From contig NJBF01000073.1 of assembly GCA_003144275.1 (NCBI GenBank), forward strand, positions 1 through 10,667: a stretch of DNA of 10,667 nt. The letters run 5' to 3'. Below, piece after piece: positions 3,090-10,667 of this stretch. The position numbers and the translations under genes are program-made. Position 1 is the stretch's first letter. Each line of letters starts with the position of its first letter. Origin of the DNA: Candidatus Heimdallarchaeota archaeon B3_Heim (GTDB lineage Archaea; Asgardarchaeota; Heimdallarchaeia; Hodarchaeales; Hodarchaeaceae). The notes beneath the pieces are model-generated. The model did not search any database and was not told where the DNA came from. It was given only the letters and a program-made list of their open reading frames with translations.

Positions 3090-3204
3090 TTCTCTCGAAC
3101 CTAGTGTCTTTGGCTTGTTTCCGTCGAGTTTTGAAAATATGCTATATCCTGTGTGTCAACTTTATCTCATATCTCCAGGTCTCATTTCGGGGATACTCCC
3201 CCTC
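3090..3204 (+). repeat. Family B intergenic element, internally deleted copy (D)
   Basis: TTCTCTCGAA (3090-3099) equals 8371-8380. 3110-3125 matches 8406-8421 at 14/16. CGAGTTTTGAAAATATG (3125-3141) is identical to 10064-10080. CTCCCCCTC follows 71 nt after that block here and 70 nt after it in the 10064 copy. Confidence 0.7.
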
Positions 3205-3258
3205 TAGAATCAGAGTAATGTACTCCTGGGTTCTTTATTTTCAAGTGTTTTAGTGAAA

Positions 3259-3287
3259 TTGACTTGCCTTTTCCTAGCTTTTATAGT
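3259..3287 (+). promoter_or_regulatory. Putative sigma70 promoter TTGACT-N17-TATAGT, antisense to the 3311..3793 gene
   Basis: TTGACT at 3259-3264, 17-nt spacer, TATAGT at 3282-3287. Confidence 0.5.
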
Positions 3288-3310
3288 ATAAAGCCTAGCC
3301 CGAGCCTCTT

Positions 3311-3793
3311 TCAGAAAACATCAAGCAGTCCCCATTTATCCTTCCATTGTTTGATCCTCTTTTCATCTATGGCGTGATGCTTTGACTTTGGACTTCTGGC
3401 TCTCTTTCCTCCATGTCTATTTAGATAATCTTGATGGGTTTTGTGAATATTGTTACGAATCCACCAGTCGGGAACGATCCAAAACTCGGGGTGTTTTTTT
3501 GAACTTCCGATATCTATAAACACCCAAAATGCTGTTTCAGGCACTCTAGACTCACACGGTCTTCCTTCATCAATACTGGTATGCCATGTGCCAGAACGCT
3601 TGGTTTTAACCTGTATAGTGACTATGCGGCTTTGGTCAAGATTGCTTGCCATTATATCAATCTTGGGCATGTTACCAGCAAATGTGACCGCATACGCTCC
3701 TCTCCGATTTAACTCTGCAGCGACGTAATATTCCCCAGCTCGAGCAGTTTGTTGATTCTTTGCACCGCGGTTACCTGAAGATTCTTCTGCCAT
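3311..3793 (-). CDS. PD-(D/E)XK superfamily nuclease (stand-alone, Hjc/restriction-endonuclease-like), about 160 aa
   Basis: Motifs GEYYVAAEL ... KIDIMA ... IQVKT (E...D...QxK). ATG 3793 with GGAGA upstream is preferred over GTG 3808. Confidence 0.85.
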   Translation of the reverse strand: MAEESSGNRGAKNQQTARAGEYYVAAELNRRGAYAVTFAGNMPKIDIMASNLDQSRIVTIQVKTKRSGTWHTSIDEGRPCESRVPETAFWVFIDIGSSKKHPEFWIVPDWWIRNNIHKTHQDYLNRHGGKRARSPKSKHHAIDEKRIKQWKDKWGLLDVF

Positions 3794-3867
3794 GATTTGC
3801 TTCTCCACTATATTTGTTTTTCATATTCTTTTATAACATTTTTGACATTGCCAAAAGCTCTGTATTG

Positions 3868-3948
3868 CACAACTGGCTCGATAAAAATTTCTTAATAGAG
3901 GAGCTTTAATTTTACCCAGGCCTTATAGGTTGCTTCTTCTTGAGAGAG
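3868..3948 (-). repeat. Family A intergenic element, copy 3
   Basis: Cores at 3868-3878, 3904-3918 and 3925-3932 (ATAGGTTG). It is closer to copy 2 than to copy 1 in the variable spacer. Confidence 0.9.
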
Positions 3949-4028
3949 GACCTCTTTTATCTAGTCGGCATCAACCCCAATTTTTACTTTATTAATTCTC
4001 TTTTGCTCGTCCTTTCCTGCTTATTGTC

Positions 4029-4367
4029 TTACCTTCTAGCAGATGCAGAGCATTTTTTCTTCTTTCTTTGTTGCCATATCTCTTTTATTGCAGCTCCTAC
4101 CTTTCTGAACTCCTCTTCTGTAAATTTATCACTTTTAGCATTATTACACAGAGAACAAGATAGGACACAATTTTCCTTGCTATAGCCTTTCGCATTATCC
4201 TTACGTTCAAGTTCCAATTTTTTACCCCTCTTATCTTGACCATAAAATTTGTGCCAGATTGGAATAACTTCTTCTTCCTGGATTCCACAGTAGTGGCACT
4301 GTCACCCATCTCTTCTGTAAAGTTTTTCTCGCAATCTATCTTTTTCCTTGTTACTTATTTTCGTCAT
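4029..4367 (-). pseudogene. HNH-type zinc-binding endonuclease interrupted by an in-frame TGA
   Basis: One frame from ATG 4367: MTKISNKEKDRLREKLYRRDG*QCHYCGIQEEE...LELERKDNAKGYSKENCVLSCSLCNNAK. TGA at 4304-4302. CxYC and CxxCN motifs are intact. Confidence 0.8.
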
Positions 4368-4464
4368 CTCGATAGCATCCAAGAAACCTTCGAATTTGGA
4401 AGTACAAGAGGTCAAAGTCAACGAGAGAGAAAGAACAACAATAAAAGACCGCTTTTCTTCTCAC
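4368..4464 (-). pseudogene. Frameshifted lipoprotein signal-peptide fragment in frame with the HNH ORF
   Basis: SD AGGAGGTGA (4478-4470) and GTG at 4464. Removing one T from the T4 run at 4446-4443 gives MRRKAVFIVVLSLSLTLTS-C-TSKFEGFLDAIE, which continues into the HNH ATG. The lipobox-like Cys codon is at 4406-4404. Confidence 0.5.
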
Positions 4465-4594
4465 CTTTCTCACCTCCTGGTGTATAATAGCTGTGCTAGG
4501 GTAAAACTTGTTCACTTTTTCCCATCCAAACTCAGGCTCGGTTGTTGTAGTCTTTATAACTAGTCACCATCTGATCGTGTCACTGGAGTACAGC

Positions 4595-6418
4595 TCAAAA
4601 TTCCAGTTTGCTACTATCCCGGAAGCACCAACTACCATATGTAAATTTATTGTCGTCGCCGTAGTGAACCTTGTATATTAGCGAGCATCCCAGCCAATAT
4701 TTTGAAATGATAGTTTCACCTGCTGAAATATTAATATTACAGTTTCTCTCTCTAGTCGGATCGACGACCGCACTGGGCCCCATTTCTTCGGCTGCCGCTT
4801 CTGCCTCAGCTAGACTGTCTTTGTATTTATCACTTTGGTACGCGGCATTGGTATAGTAGTAGCGAAGGCCAGTTTTACCATCCTCCCATGTACCACCCCA
4901 TTTACCAGGGTCTACCGCCACTACACCCTTCCCAGTAACACCAGAGATCGTGTATTTGACTCGATCATAGTGACCACAAGCTAATGCTGTATCGGATATA
5001 AACTCTCCTGCCTTTTCTCCTACTTCCACTGAAGCGAAATCCACTGAATTGCTAGTCAAAAGATCTCCAGTCCAGGTAGCTCCACCATCTGAGGAAAGTT
5101 TAAACTCGCTAAGGATCAATCTGTAAACACTAGGGGCAGCATAAAATCTTTTTTCTCCAGCTAGTGCTAGTTCGCCAGGTGGCTCATCCCTCCATGCCTC
5201 TAGGGTTAGGTATCCGGTATTAGTACCAGAAGCAATTAGTATCTTGTAATCAATCAATGTTACTTCATAGCCTACTTTTATGAAGCTGAGTATCGTCATT
5301 TTCACACCACCAATGCCTTCTAACCCACCATAAAGTAACCAGGAAGGATTTTGAACATCCAGTTCCAAATATCCATCTACATTTACATAAGGACCCACCA
5401 CACCGTAAATCTTAAAAGCAAGTTTAGGACCTGCGTAACCTTTAATTCCTCCGACAGAAACAATAGATGGTGGATTGTATTCAAAGTCACTGGAGAATTC
5501 ACTAATTGGGGACCATGCTCCGTAGTCATATTCTACTCCGGCTGATAAAGTTGCCTGTTGGGTAATACCTGTGGTTACTTTACAACTAACTTCAGCTTCG
5601 GCCCCTACAACTAAAGAAATCTCAGGAACAAAAACTATCGGACCAATTGGAATCGCAGCGAAAGGAAATTTTGCTAATTCCACCTCCTTCAACAACGATA
5701 TAGCAACTGCTGATTTTATTTCAATTTCCGCTGTCTGCTCGACCGTTTGAATAAACTTGAGTTCTTTTAAGTCAAACCACCTAATTACAAGTTTAAAATC
5801 TATACTGGCTTCGAAAGCTATCGACCCATTAGCAACTATCTGGTCATTTCTGGTATCCAAATTTCCATCACGGTCATATAGAACTACATTGTCTAATTCT
5901 ACAGTAAATCGCCCTAGCGCTCTCGACGGACCCATAGATACTCCCTTTCTGAACATAGGGGCTCTTTGTTGATCGAGATCACTGGGAGTAAGATCTTTTT
6001 TTAATTCAATATTTACATTCTCAAACGCTTCTTCTAAGGTTGTAGTTGCTGTTTCAACTATATACTCATCTGCTGTGATATTAATTGCCACAACTTTACG
6101 AAGAAATCCTTCACCTTCAGTATTTATGATTATATCGCCTGATTGAAGATTTTCAATTTCTGTTGCTTCTTTATTAAAGTAATAAGTGGAGTCTTCTATT
6201 CTCTCTAATTGTTGAACGGTTTCTTCACTGAGAACTTCTGTGTTATCCGCAAGTTTGACTTCATATCCATTTTCTTCTTCATGTTCTCTCTCCCTTAATT
6301 CATCAATCTTCCCCTCTATCGCTGATATTATGCCAAAATGAAGTCCCTTAGCTGACGCTTGATAGGGTAGAATTAAACAAGTAATTATCAAGACTATTGG
6401 TATTATCTTTTTATTCAT
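4595..6418 (-). CDS. Large secreted/surface protein, 607 aa, beta-rich and apparently two modules
   Basis: Start reassigned to ATG 6418 (SD AAGGAGGGAG; MNKKIIPIVLIITCLILPYQASA signal peptide). The C-terminal module (VYRLILSEFKLS...ALACGHYDRVKYTI) is reminiscent of DUF4382-like domains, from memory and not searched. Confidence 0.8.
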   Translation of the reverse strand: MNKKIIPIVLIITCLILPYQASAKGLHFGIISAIEGKIDELREREHEEENGYEVKLADNTEVLSEETVQQLERIEDSTYYFNKEATEIENLQSGDIIINTEGEGFLRKVVAINITADEYIVETATTTLEEAFENVNIELKKDLTPSDLDQQRAPMFRKGVSMGPSRALGRFTVELDNVVLYDRDGNLDTRNDQIVANGSIAFEASIDFKLVIRWFDLKELKFIQTVEQTAEIEIKSAVAISLLKEVELAKFPFAAIPIGPIVFVPEISLVVGAEAEVSCKVTTGITQQATLSAGVEYDYGAWSPISEFSSDFEYNPPSIVSVGGIKGYAGPKLAFKIYGVVGPYVNVDGYLELDVQNPSWLLYGGLEGIGGVKMTILSFIKVGYEVTLIDYKILIASGTNTGYLTLEAWRDEPPGELALAGEKRFYAAPSVYRLILSEFKLSSDGGATWTGDLLTSNSVDFASVEVGEKAGEFISDTALACGHYDRVKYTISGVTGKGVVAVDPGKWGGTWEDGKTGLRYYYTNAAYQSDKYKDSLAEAEAAAEEMGPSAVVDPTRERNCNINISAGETIISKYWLGCSLIYKVHYGDDNKFTYGSWCFRDSSKLEF

Positions 6419-6491
6419 TACTCCCTCCTTCAGACAAAAATTCCAATTGAGCCTACCAAAACAGAACAAATGAAGCTACGTTATGGCTATA

Positions 6492-6944
6492 CTATTTAAA
6501 GTAGAAATTGATACCTAGATTATAAACCCACTCTATTCCACCAACCGATGTATCTTCAGATGATAGACTAATGTAAGCTGGACCTATATCTAGAGAGAAC
6601 GCCATTTTCTTACTGATAAAGCGTTCAAAACCAAGGAACAGCATTCCAAAGGAACCGTCACCTTCGATATCCTCTTTGTCAAAGTTTATGAGGCCAACTT
6701 CTACTCCCGCAAAGGTGACTGTTTTACCCTTAGGGCCGAAACCGCGATAGAGCCTAACACTGTATACACCGATTCCAGAACCAAAAGCTCCTCTTCCTTC
6801 TATAGCGAATCTAGGACTGGTCCAGTACTTCAACGAAATATACGGATTGCCGAGCCCGATGCCCCATCTCCCAGCACTAACTGGAATAGCGGTGATGCTA
6901 ATGAGCAGTGAAGTTAAGACCAACATCACCAATCTTTTTCTCAT
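6492..6944 (-). CDS. Small outer-membrane beta-barrel protein, 150 aa
   Basis: SD GGGAGGTG. Signal peptide ending PVSA. Alternating amphipathic strands rich in Gly and aromatics. Terminal YNLGINFYFK fits a beta-signal. Confidence 0.85.
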   Translation of the reverse strand: MRKRLVMLVLTSLLISITAIPVSAGRWGIGLGNPYISLKYWTSPRFAIEGRGAFGSGIGVYSVRLYRGFGPKGKTVTFAGVEVGLINFDKEDIEGDGSFGMLFLGFERFISKKMAFSLDIGPAYISLSSEDTSVGGIEWVYNLGINFYFK

Positions 6945-7314
6945 GTCTCACCTCCCTAACCCTAAGCTTGTTGGTTAACGCTATCTACTTTGTAACTGTT
7001 TATGGTTGATTTATTGTAAAACAGATTAGCTGTACGCCAAAACTGCGTTGAGAACCTGGAGTGAGTGGGTTTTTGAGCTGCCTTGGGCTGTAGGATAGCC
7101 TGTTGGAGAACTTCTGTGGCTACATTTCAAGGAATTAAGGAGCCAGCACGAAGGGGGTGTCTTTACTTCTGGGGTAGTTGTCTAGGTGTTAAGTTATTTA
7201 CCTTGAATTGAGACTTCCTCTTTTTCCTGACTAGTCTCGAGACAGACGTTAATATGTCACTTCCTTTTTCTTACCCCCTCTTTTCTAGCTATTCTGGCAA
7301 TTTGTAGATCACTC

Positions 7315-7351
7315 AATAAAAAAGCCCATTCTTTTCGTCAAAAGAATGGGC
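7315..7351 (-). terminator. Intrinsic terminator forming the riboswitch expression platform
   Basis: Perfect 12-bp stem GCCCATTCTTTT/AAAAGAATGGGC (7324-7351), 4-nt loop, followed by TTTTTTATT on the minus strand. Confidence 0.9.
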
Positions 7352-7374
7352 GATTGCGGCCCGGTATGTAATTT

Positions 7375-7446
7375 CGGTAATCCAGCTGCCATTTAAAAGG
7401 CCTATGGTTTTGCGCCCTATTCTTTCGAACAGTTTGCCTTTGTCGA
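7375..7446 (-). promoter_or_regulatory. Cyclic di-GMP-I (GEMM-I) riboswitch aptamer
   Basis: Minus strand UCGACAAAGGCAAACUGUUCGAAAGAAUAGGGCGCAAAACCAUAGGCCUUUUAAAUGGCAGCUGGAUUACCG. It has GGCAAA, a stem capped by a GAAA tetraloop, GCGCAAAA, a second stem, and 3' UUACCG. Confidence 0.92.
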
Positions 7447-7529
7447 TTACATCCTTCTTAGCTATTGAACGATTAATCAAAGATCCACTTCTCTAGTAGT
7501 CATGTCCAAGTATCTGATAGCGCATTGTT

Positions 7530-7557
7530 ATCATAGTAAAAAAGGAATATTTGTCAA
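7530..7557 (-). promoter_or_regulatory. Putative promoter TTGACA-N16-TATGAT driving the riboswitch leader
   Basis: -35 at 7557-7552, -10 at 7535-7530. It is divergent from the plus-strand promoter at 7613. Confidence 0.6.
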
Positions 7558-7608
7558 GTGATGTATTCTTTTGGTCTTGATGATTGCCTCAACAGCATAC
7601 CCCTAAAT

Positions 7609-7641
7609 CAGATTGACAAGTGCTGAGATTTGGCTTAGACT
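7609..7641 (+). promoter_or_regulatory. Family B element copy A, which is a near-consensus sigma70 promoter (TTGACA-N17-TAGACT)
   Basis: TTGACA at 7613-7618, TAGACT at 7636-7641. 7609-7636 matches 8385-8412 at 27/28, and its first 24 nt match 10006-10029 at 23/24. Confidence 0.8.
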
Positions 7642-7712
7642 ATCGTCAGAGAATGTAGTTGAGAAGTATCTGGGTTAGGATATACCTGGTTATCAGAGGA
7701 GGAATATTTCAA

Positions 7713-8264
7713 ATGGCGACGAAGAAAAATCAACATCCATTGCACAAGGTCATTGGAGATATGATTCAGGATAGCGAATTGCAAGATTGTGCTGTAATAA
7801 AAGATCCTGCATGCGGCGGAAATCAAAATATACCGTTGTTTTGTTCTGTTGAGAAGTCAAATGAAACAGAATACTGTAATGTGGATTTGTTGATACTAAA
7901 GGATAATAAAATCCGGGTAATTGTTGAAATCGAAGAAGCAGATGTTACCCCAATACAGATATTTGGCAAATTTCTGGCTTCAGCTTTATCATTCTATTTT
8001 ATTCATGGGACCCGAAAGAATGTGCCTGTCGGGATGGGGGATTCGGTATCATTCATCCAAATATTGGATGTGTCTAGATTGATACAGGATAAAACAGCTA
8101 AATTTGGTCAGTGGAAACGTATGGAAAAATCGATAAGAAACATAGTGCCAGTTAGAAACAGCAAAATTAGTGACTACAAAATCTTCTTTGGGAATACTAG
8201 TGACTTTGCCCAAGAGGACAAGAAACGGGAGATCACCCACTACATAAGAAGAGCGCTAATCTGA
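7713..8264 (+). CDS. Restriction-endonuclease-like (PD-(D/E)XK-like) hypothetical protein, 183 aa
   Basis: ATG 7713 after SD GAGGAGGA. The motif NVDLLILKDNKIRVIVEIEE has the D-x(n)-E-x-E layout, with Glu where Lys is usual. Confidence 0.7.
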   Translation: MATKKNQHPLHKVIGDMIQDSELQDCAVIKDPACGGNQNIPLFCSVEKSNETEYCNVDLLILKDNKIRVIVEIEEADVTPIQIFGKFLASALSFYFIHGTRKNVPVGMGDSVSFIQILDVSRLIQDKTAKFGQWKRMEKSIRNIVPVRNSKISDYKIFFGNTSDFAQEDKKREITHYIRRALI

Positions 8265-8367
8265 GTCCGACCTCTGATAGTCCGTAACCTATCCAACTTC
8301 GCTCCGTTAGCCAATGAAAAAACAACATCGATGAATCTGGGTAAGACTCCAAAAACCAAATTTTCCT

Positions 8368-8421
8368 GTATTCTCTCGAAGAACCAGATTGGCAAGTGCT
8401 GAGATTTGGCTTGGCTCCGTC
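8368..8421 (+). repeat. Family B element copy B
   Basis: 27/28 identity to 7609-7636. The upstream GTATT..CTC.AA is similar to 9990-10005. The -35 is TTGGCA and the -10 is lost. Confidence 0.85.
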
Positions 8422-9020
8422 AAATCAAGGAACTAATGGTCGTTTAATAGCAAATCCTACATTCTCTGTTGACCCTCCTATTGTACCATTCCTGCCTCGG
8501 CCGGAATGTCGCGATGGGGGGAGGTCGACACAAAACATAGGATTCACTGTCAAGACAGCTTTGATTGGTTGACATGTAACGAACACTTTCCTATAATAAC
8601 CCAACAATGGATTCGGGTGGTGACTGCGCCTGTCCCTACCGACTGGTGCCAGCCAACGGTAAGACATGCACTGAACTGAAAATGCAAAAAGACCAAATCC
8701 TAAGAGTAAGCCCAGAAGACGGAAACACACTCCAGACAAGTCTTCCAACTGGTTTTCTTTTGTCACCAACTCATACCATTTTATAGGATTTCATACCTCT
8801 TCTGGACACTATTTGGACAGTAAAACTTACTCTTTGAAATAGACCCTCAATATAGAGTAATGAGTACACCTAGTGGTACAGAACAAAGGTTTCTGACGTG
8901 GCTAATCAGACGTGGAGGGATTTCCTTGAGGGAGAGATTTACTAAGTAACCGATGTCTACACACTTCGATACAACCGAGTTAGCTCAAATTAGCGATGGT
9001 ATTACAGGGACATAATTGAT

Positions 9021-9788
9021 ATGAACGTATTTGACGACCTAAAGAAGCCGTTCAATGTCTTTCTTGTCGTTATGGCCGTGGTTGGCTGGATTATCAATGC
9101 TTACTTCTTCTTCAAATCAGAAAGAATCCGAGGCCCAACTTATCTTGTTTCCTCAGAAATAAACAAGGTCTACGATAGCAAGAAGGTGTCTCCAAAGTTA
9201 ATCTTACTAAAGACCCCAGGTGAGAAAATAGAAAAGGATGTATTTCTTGTCACTGTGCATTTCTGGAATTCTGGTAAGCTTCCAATCGAGCCCCAAGATA
9301 TCCGTGAGCCAGTAAAGTTCACAATCCGTAACTGCGAAGAGATCGTAGATTATAATGTAATTTCAGAGACTAATCCAGAGATAACTGATTTCCGCGTATC
9401 ACCCGGAGGTGACCGAAAATCTCTTATATTGAATTGGGCGCATTTGGACCCCAAAAATGGGGCAAAATTCCAGGTATTTTATACTGGTCCACCAAATCCA
9501 GAATACCTGTTCACTGGCAATATCCTTGGAAGCACCGTATTTCTTGATGGAAGATCTTTAGGTAAGAGGGTGCAGAGGACTAAACTTGGCGCAGTGCTTG
9601 TCAGCGTAGTCGTCGGGGCAGGCTCCGGATTATTGGGCTGGTGGGGCAGTACTTTATATGTCGACGTCAAATTAAGAAGAAGGAAAGGTATCCATGTGCG
9701 GGTCGCGATTTTTCTGGCTGCCTTATCAGGATATTTGTTATTCATTTACGTCATGCTTCTTACTAGTGGCAAAATTCCACCGGTATAG
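9021..9788 (+). CDS. Hypothetical membrane protein (one N-terminal and two C-terminal TM segments around a beta-rich soluble domain), 255 aa
   Basis: Long unshadowed ORF with hydrophobic segments VFLVVMAVVGWIINAYFFF, LGAVLVSVVVGAGSGLLGWW and VAIFLAALSGYLLFIYVMLL. Confidence 0.8.
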   Translation: MNVFDDLKKPFNVFLVVMAVVGWIINAYFFFKSERIRGPTYLVSSEINKVYDSKKVSPKLILLKTPGEKIEKDVFLVTVHFWNSGKLPIEPQDIREPVKFTIRNCEEIVDYNVISETNPEITDFRVSPGGDRKSLILNWAHLDPKNGAKFQVFYTGPPNPEYLFTGNILGSTVFLDGRSLGKRVQRTKLGAVLVSVVVGAGSGLLGWWGSTLYVDVKLRRRKGIHVRVAIFLAALSGYLLFIYVMLLTSGKIPPV

Positions 9789-9946
9789 GAGGCCATGCTC
9801 AATTCGGCTAACAGCGGCCAAGAGGAAGGTTAGAGATTTTCCTAAACCCGCTTTCGGTTAGTTCCGTAAATACCGAAAAGTCATGTTCACACTGTCCTAC
9901 TCCCATTAATAGTACCACTTGTTAAGTTAGAGTCAACGGAATAGTA

Positions 9947-9975
9947 GCCTCGGGAGCAGGTGGTCGGTAGTTCAA
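9947..9975 (+). pseudogene. tRNA-Pro(CGG) internal fragment, a possible att-site scar
   Basis: GC-CTCGGGA-GCAGG-TGGTC-GGTAG-TTCAA fits tRNA positions about 30-58: anticodon loop with CGG at 9951-9953 plus G37/A38, 3' anticodon stem, 5-nt variable loop, T-stem and TTCAA. There is no D-arm or acceptor stem. Confidence 0.7.
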
Positions 9976-9989
9976 GACACTGTGCGGCC

Positions 9990-10142
9990 GTATTTCCTCA
10001 AAACCCGGATTGACAAGTGCTGAGATTTGTTTCCCAGTATAACACGAGATCAATCTTACTCTCCGAGTTTTGAAAATATGTTGTATCGTGTTAGTGAGGT
10101 TTTATAGATGATTTTATCGTCCGAGTGGCACTGCTCCCCCTC
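9990..10142 (+). repeat. Family B element copy C (longest)
   Basis: Contains both the GATTGACAAGTGCTGAGATTTG block (shared with 7611 and 8387) and the CGAGTTTTGAAAATATG...CTCCCCCTC block (shared with 3125-3204). Confidence 0.8.
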
Positions 10143-10215
10143 GGCTATGTTCCGTGCCTCCTTAGGGAATGCGACTTTGAACGATTTCATCGATTGGGCA
10201 GGACGGCTAGGTTTG

Positions 10216-10268
10216 GTGTCCATATAGTGTCCATAATAGGTGTAAAATGAGGCAAATTCAGGCAAATT
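10216..10268. repeat. Two pairs of short direct repeats resembling integrase arm-type or RDF binding sites
   Basis: GTGTCCATA at 10216 and 10227 (period 11). AGGCAAATT at 10250 and 10260 (period 10). Confidence 0.55.
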
Positions 10269-10667
10269 GGTGGGGAAAGAGAATCACTTGGAACGGTTGT
10301 CTAAAGCAGGTTTGGTTCTCCAGGACTTACTCTTGTGATTTGTCACCATCGGCTTGGAAGGCCGACCCCTGACCATGTGGGCTAGTCGGTCATCAGGCGG
10401 AGGATATTAAGGTCCAGGAGGGTTATGCCTTCCTTCTCTAGCAACTCACAGATCTGAACTCAAACTAGTGGTTTCACCAACTCGAAGTCACATGTTATAT
10501 TGCGACTATAACATAAGAATACAATGCCTGCCAGAGTTTCCCCACACTTTTTAGCACAATAATACGTCCAACCAATAGATAGTTGTTGCCATTCAAACAG
10601 GATTCCTCATAATGTTCTGGTGAGGCTAAACTGCTATTTAAGATGGTAAGCGTTAGCCTGTGACACG

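Follow-up and report, generated by a model that had tools for sequence, protein, structure and literature searches.

The window considered here is a stretch of 10,667 nucleotides that makes up the entire contig C83 of a 103-contig Asgard metagenome-assembled genome (MAG), Candidatus Heimdallarchaeota archaeon B3_Heim (G000). Three co-oriented copies of a short repeat, named A, B and C, were found in it, and these belong to a family that recurs in arrays of unrelated genes in bacterial genomes of the Aerophobetes phylum. With moderate confidence, the repeat is read here as a portable promoter module that is also the junction at which single-gene units are exchanged, by homologous recombination or gene conversion.

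The core of the repeat is 26 nt long (consensus CCAGATTGACAAGTGCTGAGATTTGG) and is located on the plus strand at 7608-7633 (copy A), 8384-8409 (copy B) and 10005-10030 (copy C), with 1, 1 and 2 mismatches to the family consensus, respectively. Used as a search pattern, the family consensus gave exactly three matches in the window and none in 200 dinucleotide shuffles, and a repeat search of the window returned a co-oriented 31-nt block at 7606, 8382 and 10003 (100, 94 and 81% identity). The distance from core to core is 776 nt between A and B and 1621 nt between B and C. An earlier inspection of the letters made without database searches (the sequence-only reading hereafter) had pointed to this shared block, to copy A as a TTGACA-N17-TAGACT promoter ahead of the gene starting at 7713 (gene X), and to copy B as following the same gene and closing a 776-bp unit bounded by direct repeats; at the level of sequence, all three observations held.

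Copy A (7599-7641, plus strand) looks intact, being composed of a C/A-rich tract, a -35 hexamer TTGACA (7613-7618), a 17-nt spacer and a -10 hexamer TAGACT (7636-7641). It matches the family consensus at all informative positions, lies 72 nt 5' of the ATG at 7713 and appears functional as a promoter. The leader of gene X follows at 7642-7712 (plus strand), with a ribosome-binding site (AGAGGAGG, 7694-7701), and resembles those of about 23 out of 89 further copies. Copy B (8375-8417, plus strand) is decayed, with TTGGCA at -35 (8389-8394) and TGGCTC in the -10 slot (8412-8417); it is found 119 nt past the stop codon of gene X, and no open reading frame (ORF) of at least 100 amino acids lies downstream of it. 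The A-to-G change of its -35 hexamer is also present in L089, a contig from ENA, so this change would be older than the split of these two strains. Copy C (9996-10038, plus strand) is decayed as well: its core ends in TTTGT, its -10 slot reads CCCAGT (10033-10038), and it is fused to another repeat, block S, a fusion that is also observed in copies of the genomes G041, G042 and G044. The window thus seems to hold one working module (A) and two relics lacking a -10 hexamer (B and C). The sequence-only reading had described four states of decay; the intact state of A and the loss of the -10 hexamer in B and C stand, but the fourth supposed copy, at 3090-3204, is a different element, named block D.

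All genomes compared were incomplete MAGs, and a stretch was considered as a copy of the module when it had at most 3 mismatches in 26 nt, a threshold on which the counts depend. With this criterion, 9 of the 31 genomes examined from the Aerophobetes phylum carried the module (42, 19, 13, 13, 12, 10, 4, 2 and 1 copies), while a reversed-pattern control gave 0 everywhere. Exact matches were present in at least 120 metagenome contigs, and the viral contigs gave no match. An information profile, computed without gaps on 82 distinct copies, showed that conservation spans only about -9 to +34 around the core start (44 nt), peaking on TTGACA and the spacer. In the module, a C/A-rich tract (nCnCCnAAAA) leads into the 26-nt core; after two positions rich in pyrimidines come T and A, with a further T four bases later. 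Both the TTGACA (core positions 5-10) and the 17-nt spacer (AGTGCTGAGATTTGGyy) are near-invariant. A TAnnnT located exactly 17 nt past TTGACA occurs in 37 of 73 genome copies and, among the matches listed, in 103 of 167 metagenome copies (51-62%), the background level being 1.9%. Only the T, the A and the final T are conserved in the -10 slot, and these are the three positions most important for a -10 hexamer, as would be predicted for selection on promoter function and not for a decaying repeat. A TTGACA-like and a TAnnnT hexamer separated by 16-18 bp, the criterion used for sigma-70 promoters, are found in copy A and in the family, and copies B and C lack the second. A co-oriented ORF of at least 100 amino acids starts within 300 nt downstream in 38 of 73 genome copies (mirrored control: 14 of 73) and in 90 of 134 metagenome copies among the matches listed.

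Beyond the conserved stretch, a loosely similar, weak leader of about 55 nt follows the module in about a quarter of the copies. No consensus secondary structure was found in the leaders with RNAalifold (leader of copy A: z -0.4), and Rfam searches on 7560-9020 returned chance-level rows only. “Start-stop” mini-ORFs were noted in the leaders of a few copies and rejected as a general feature. Between the window and L086, a Logan contig, 25 of the 26 core positions are identical and the adjoining leader is clearly more diverged; the core is apparently under selection.

Several lines of evidence bear on the origin of the contig. The module and the blocks A, D, I and R are absent from all other contigs of G000, block S alone having a second copy, in contig C29, and the window stretch 6900-10667 gave no match in 40 relatives of G000; many matches of the window blocks were obtained in Aerophobetes genomes. 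The G + C content of C83 and C29 is 40%, versus 36% for G000, and both are among the contigs least like the MAG in tetranucleotide use. The window also carries a bacterial c-di-GMP-I-GGC riboswitch (60.4 bits) and sigma-70-type promoter-like sites. An exact 22-mer, searched in one genome per species, was located at 24 loci, of which almost all are in “Candidatus Aerophobetes” MAGs; some were labelled “uncultured Clostridia”, and the five that were followed up belong to the same GTDB phylum set. The window is probably a bacterial contig of Aerophobetes type, mis-binned into the Asgard MAG, and its being foreign to the bin explains why the repeat looked private to it. Contig C29 also looks foreign to the Asgard MAG, and its repeat blocks match Aerophobetes genomes only; its copy of block S (4272-4345) adjoins an apparent C-terminal fragment of a methyltransferase (our translation).

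In the relatives, the modules are organised in arrays. In each of the multi-copy loci L060-L075, all copies lie on one strand, with a typical spacing of 460-2500 nt and up to nine copies per contig. Among the matches listed from metagenomes, an independent set, the copies share one orientation in 49 of 50 multi-copy contigs, with spacings clustering at about 0.8-1 kb, and overall the spacing is mostly about 0.3-2.5 kb. A typical unit comprises the module, 40-250 nt, one ORF, 26-170 nt and the next module. The genes of these units are very diverse: 41 of 47 downstream ORFs are singletons, and 137 metagenome ORFs (among the matches listed) fell into 101 clusters. Pfam domains detected in this cargo include HAD hydrolases, endonuclease V, PhzF, homocysteine methyltransferase, glycosyltransferase and OYE reductase, as well as ApeA-HEPN, LigD phosphoesterase, AlkZ-like glycosylase, subtilase, YkuD and methyltransferases; the cargo genes have no common functional theme. 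Dozens of copies per genome lie inside arrays rather than at island ends. The genes adjoining terminal modules vary (integrase, IS110, AbiEi, HEPN/NT, ATPase), and a fixed block, named E, is frequent at array ends.

Movement of whole units was assessed on the gene X unit (7608-8410). Its modules are exactly 776 nt apart in the window, in L086 and in L089, and the gene X protein is 87% identical to that of the window in L086 and 98% identical in L089. In a three-way alignment, the left flanks are unrelated until about 10 nt before the core, the alignment then runs through the end of the next core, and the sequences diverge again: the shared unit is followed by an ApeA-HEPN unit in L086, by block E in L089 and by other sequence in the window. 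The cassette tail (8265-8383, plus strand), which includes the stretch ttctctcgaagaa at 8368, is about 98-99% identical in L086 and L089, so that it would travel with gene X. When the window is compared with L086, identity over the unit is about 80% in its first half and about 99% in its second, which suggests that recombination occurs inside units too; on the gene itself (window 7713-8264, L086:1258-1809), the step from about 80% to about 99% near 8040 marks a breakpoint. The loci L065 and L072 share another unit at 94.5% identity with modules at both bounds, and the same holds for L013 and L029. A variant core goes with the downstream unit in L061 and L070 and with the upstream unit in the window and L089, and unit boundaries may thus fall on either edge of the module.

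A candidate empty site was found in contig C10 of the Aerophobetes MAG G042 (locus L016). This contig carries the left flank of the window and one module (7525-7642, with 7565-7633 at 99% identity) without the gene X unit. Directly after the single module comes a homolog of the window segment 8427-8488 (segment Y, plus strand; 71% over 62 nt, E 9e-6), and further on the block at 10047-10280 is present at 95%. This contig is considered as an empty-site allele lacking the 776-bp unit, with moderate support; the sequence-only reading had proposed to look for such an allele, and the one found has the left flank, a single module and segment Y, the match to Y being short. Together with the unrelated genes in co-oriented arrays and the occurrence of the 776-nt unit in two other neighbourhoods, it supports the proposal of that reading that a portable promoter module serves to add or lose single genes. 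Between its single module and its block D, the same contig holds what we read as a decayed piece of OrfA from an IS3-type transposase (about 3930-4150, minus strand).

In the mechanism proposed, each module would head a unit with a single gene, in which leader, ORF and a short tail follow the module, and unrelated units would be lined up head to tail in the same orientation. Since every junction carries the same 26-45 bp, the module may also serve for the exchange, insertion or loss of units, and a gene arriving between two modules would bring, or land behind, a ready promoter. In the window, copy A would drive gene X, whose product has a predicted nuclease fold; copy B would be the mutated module of a next unit that was lost or degraded, and copy C a third mutated module, fused to block S. 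The most economical route of exchange would be through the 26-45 bp that the junctions share, by homologous recombination of the ordinary kind or by gene conversion, and both the lack of a recombinase linked to the modules and the boundaries at either module edge were counted in its favour.

Several points weigh against this reading. Promoter activity is inferred from sequence logic and orientation, under which the module would be a sigma-70-like promoter, and about one third to half of the copies have no clear downstream ORF or TAnnnT. The near-invariant spacer is unusual for a plain promoter and may reflect some further constraint (a bound protein, a recombinase or gene conversion). Unit boundaries at either module edge fit homologous exchange without proving it, and a shared length of 26-45 bp is close to the minimum that RecA-type recombination requires. 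The match to segment Y is short (62 nt, 71%), for which reason the empty-site allele has only moderate support. Finally, unitigs of four sediment runs show a very high summed depth at the repeat blocks of 6900-10667 and end there; none of the listed Logan unitigs spans copy A or the junction between block S and copy C, and the joints of the listed unitigs, with sides of at most 31 nt at 88% likeness, are not trustworthy. Joins across repeats made in the metagenome assembly could be wrong in this contig, and with them the order of its segments.

The system most similar to these arrays is the integron, with its clusters of attC sites lacking integron integrases (CALIN) (Cury et al. 2016, PMC4889954). 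Both consist of short co-oriented units with usually one ORF each; both have very diverse, mostly accessory cargo, including toxin-antitoxin and defence-type genes; and in both the same unit is found in different arrays, with bounds at the repeat. Integrons are defined by IntI, attI and attC, the latter being imperfect inverted repeats of 57-141 nt with R''/R' boxes (PMC4889954). The module is, in contrast, 44 bp long, forms no imperfect hairpin and has no R''/R' boxes, and no integron integrase was found with it in five genomes. It lies 5' of the gene and is promoter-like, whereas most integron cassettes have no promoter and are transcribed from Pc; and it occurs in many short arrays per genome, unlike the single platform of an integron (PMC4889954). 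In layout and content the arrays resemble those of integron cassettes, but the defining integron parts were not found. Integrons have been described in archaeal MAGs including Asgard ones (Ghaly et al. 2022, PMC9668308), and a cassette-like array in an Asgard-labelled bin recalls them. The composition, bacterial riboswitch, promoters and repeat relatives of the present window nevertheless indicate a bacterium, and no attC sites were found in it.

The second comparison is with putative mobile promoters, or “promoter propagation” (Matus-Garcia et al. 2012; Nijveen et al. 2012, PMC3575422), in which near-identical upstream sequences also precede non-homologous genes, within and between genomes, by means of movement that are not known. 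These are mostly pairs with at least 80% identity over at least 50 nt (PMC3575422), whereas the module is shorter, has tens of copies per genome and stands in tandem co-oriented arrays, with whole units exchanged at the module. With regard to the criterion used for such promoters, the genes downstream of the module are not paralogues and the conserved part is about 44 nt, some pairs exceeding 50 nt when the leader is included. Correia elements of Neisseria, ERIC and REPIN (cited in PMC3575422) are likewise short dispersed repeats that can give promoter elements to their neighbours, but they are single insertions with terminal inverted repeats or palindromic hairpins, and the module, which has neither, forms ordered arrays; no inverted arms were found at the ends of its conserved stretch. 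The module does not qualify as an integron, and it far exceeds what has been reported for pairs of mobile promoters. No published account of module arrays or of Aerophobetes repeats, nor of cassette arrays with a shared promoter, was found in a literature coverage that is incomplete, and no relevant publication was found that links Aerophobetes and integrons.

Exchange by general recombination has to be weighed against a dedicated machinery. The module might be the recombination site of an integron-like site-specific system, in which a dedicated recombinase would insert and excise circular units made of the module and a gene, the site doubling as promoter so that any gene captured would be expressed upon arrival; this is unlikely in our estimate, though not negligible. 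The layout is that of integrons in its co-oriented arrays, diverse single genes and units common to several genomes with bounds at the repeat, the conservation of the 26-nt core is well above what a promoter would need, and arrays often terminate in block E. Moreover, genes of the HU/IHF family number 6-15 per 2-2.6 Mb genome in G041, G042, G044, G045 and G056, far above usual; seven are placed divergently at no more than about 200 nt from a module (e.g. G041:C70:159, G041:C99:9847, G044:C177:1257, G044:C38:2394 and G056:C40:7966), and such genes occur in 9 of 80 module-bearing metagenome contigs among the matches listed. The search for an integron integrase (IntI, TIGR02249) in five module-rich genomes nevertheless gave a best score of 84.6 bits for a cut-off of 265, all matches being partial and of Xer or phage type; a homologue of tyrosine recombinases was present in just 1 of the 80 metagenome contigs among the matches listed; and the sole integrase adjoining a module is bounded by its own 30-nt repeats within block E, so that it seems to target E rather than the module. 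The missing recombinase is weak evidence, since the MAGs are incomplete. The core also has no clear dyad symmetry, the folding of the junctions is not unusual (z -0.17 and -0.30, with 2-3% of copies below -2), and the unit boundaries indicate no one fixed crossover. No attC-like hairpin was found: conservation is restricted to 44 nt, folding is like that of shuffles, and the gap from stop codon to core, down to 26-34 nt, leaves no room for an attC. That an Aerophobetes clade has a gene-capture system of this kind, with a promoter as junction, dedicated recombination machinery and possibly HU/IHF-like paralogues, is accordingly kept as a minority possibility.

A simpler view takes the module as a regulated promoter only, bearing an operator and defining one regulon, the mosaic of units being due to unrelated transfer or rearrangement. 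The promoter geometry and the orientation to ORFs fit it, the invariant spacer could be an operator, and CCAGAT at one end and ATTTGG at the other make up a weak inverted pair with 14 bp between them. Against it, homology of shared units starts and stops at modules in four comparisons, and the 776-nt unit retains both bounding modules in three assemblies; tandem co-orientation (the 49 of 50 contigs above) is unexpected for a scattered regulon, and the genes share no functional theme. We consider this explanation improbable. Still less credit is given to the view that these copies are remnants left by a mobile element or by the ends of islands, such as miniature inverted-repeat transposable elements, ends of insertion sequences or att scars by a tRNA fragment. 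These repeats are indeed short and dispersed, copy C stands beside a stretch superficially like the 3' half of a tRNA, and an integrase or IS110 transposase is found near a few terminal modules. But ARAGORN detected no tRNA in the window and Rfam gave no match at E up to 10 in 9800-10400, the supposed fragment being part of the multi-copy block S; neither terminal inverted repeats nor extra folding were found; conservation stops about 34 nt past the core start and follows promoter logic; and the genes at terminal modules are variable. This view, which is very improbable, is largely refuted, and the two corresponding proposals of the sequence-only reading lack support: the tRNA-Pro fragment near copy C does not exist as such, and relics of island termini at a tRNA do not agree with the absence of a tRNA, of a consistently linked integrase and with dozens of copies inside arrays. 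Chance similarity or an assembly artefact, lastly, would be suggested by a short-read metagenome assembly whose unitigs break at repeats. It is given hardly any weight: no shuffle out of 200 matched, the gene X unit has equal spacing in two independent assemblies, and hundreds of copies occur in other genomes and metagenomes, which refutes an artefact for the repeats themselves.

Gene X (7713-8264, plus strand) encodes a protein of 183 amino acids with 251 homologues across many phyla and without a family name. It gave no Pfam, NCBIfam or PDB sequence match and nothing from PADLOC or PHROGs. Its AlphaFold model (pLDDT 87.7) was compared with known structures using Foldseek, and the matches were mostly PD-(D/E)XK nucleases, at a weak level (E 3e-3 or worse, TM 0.4-0.48), the best being Can2, BstEII, EcoT38I, BsaWI and SduA (E 3e-3 to 3e-2). 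D58, E72 and K86 are invariant in 37 homologues. “Nuclease-like”, as a prediction, is a fair label for the product; the nuclease gene announced by the sequence-only reading is thus plausible, though the predicted fold matches these nucleases only weakly.

From 8412 to 10667, genes are few and the sequence is a mosaic of further multi-copy blocks (S, D and I). Block P (7565-7607, plus strand), just 5' of copy A, is 99% identical to G042:C10 and 95% to G042:C53, and lies directly before a module in both. Block S (9892-9995, minus strand) has a leftward promoter-like TTGACT-N16-TACTAT with an upstream TG (9936-9909) and occurs in many copies in every relative searched, with or without an adjoining module. 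The divergent gene beside block S was considered as a candidate recombinase and rejected, GTPase, SIR2-like and other proteins being found there instead. Block D has one copy at 3108-3205 (plus strand), without module-like sequence upstream, and another at 10056-10140 (plus strand), downstream of copy C and 95-96% identical to G042:C10; the family is also present in G042:C53, G042:C30, G045:C2 and G044:C4, in relatives with and without the module. The link of the 3090-3204 stretch with 10064 noted by the sequence-only reading is a real repeat (3125-3163 and 10064-10102, 79% over 39 nt with a 17-nt exact run), but one of block D and not of the module. Its link with 8368 amounts to a match of 10 out of 11 nt, of which about 50 are expected by chance in 10.7 kb by our estimate, and the 8368 stretch belongs to the tail of the gene X cassette. 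The single ancestral element of about 150 bp built on these links was therefore not retained, module conservation being restricted to the 44 nt described above: it appears to be a composite of three different repeat families, because blocks S and D are multi-copy and block D is independent of the module.

Other features were recorded in the same region and upstream of it. At 8569-8597 (plus strand), in the gene-poor stretch 3' of copy B, a promoter-like site has a perfect consensus (TTGACA-17-TATAAT, 12/12); no ORF follows it closely, the ATG at 9021 being 420 nt further on. Block I forms an inverted pair of 134 nt (8694-8827 and 10209-10342, 68% identical) around an ORF of 255 amino acids for a membrane protein (9021-9788); it is multi-copy in relatives, with a terminal TGTCCA-N5-TGTCCA direct repeat and no conserved ORF. 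Family A (121-230, 1476-1632 and 3863-3933) lies upstream of three minus-strand genes and is also multi-copy in relatives, with for example at least 10 copies in G045, three times beside HU/IHF-family genes (C20, C6 and C3). The minus-strand segment 7282-7558 combines the riboswitch (7372-7447) with a TTGACA-16-TATGAT promoter and a terminator, and this block of about 280 nt is itself multi-copy, each related genome having at least 5 copies (72-85% identity). As for block E, it consists of a small ORF on the reverse strand, about 35-55 amino acids long and with the conserved motif ...VRTFFEEDIEIPIYDIP..., found at L010:4978-5082, L089:927-994 and 33 more places; it looks coding, since its substitutions are conservative. 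It converges on the last module of many arrays, its stop codon sitting in the -10 slot of that module. The possibility that block E is the 3' end of an integrase gene was discarded: it is a separate small ORF with variable neighbours, and the integrase has its own 30-nt repeats. In L101 (G042:C21, 9949-11617), a split tyrosine-integrase gene lies between two copies of a 30-nt piece of block E, which suggests a tiny integrase-only element targeting block E.

The module may be used as a sequence tag to retrieve accessory genes of Aerophobetes from metagenomes, and the present case is a caution that cassette-like contigs in archaeal bins, which are defined by coverage and composition, can be bacterial. 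Other regulatory blocks (the c-di-GMP riboswitch leader, blocks A and S) are also multi-copy in relatives, and point to a wider grammar of portable 5' modules. If the preferred reading of a portable promoter that doubles as exchange junction holds, uncultured sediment bacteria would store accessory genes as standard parts, one gene per standard promoter, lined up in arrays and exchanged between genomes at the promoter itself. This would be the clearest natural example yet of “promoter propagation”, and a second, integrase-free way to what integrons achieve, in which the problem of expression is solved differently.

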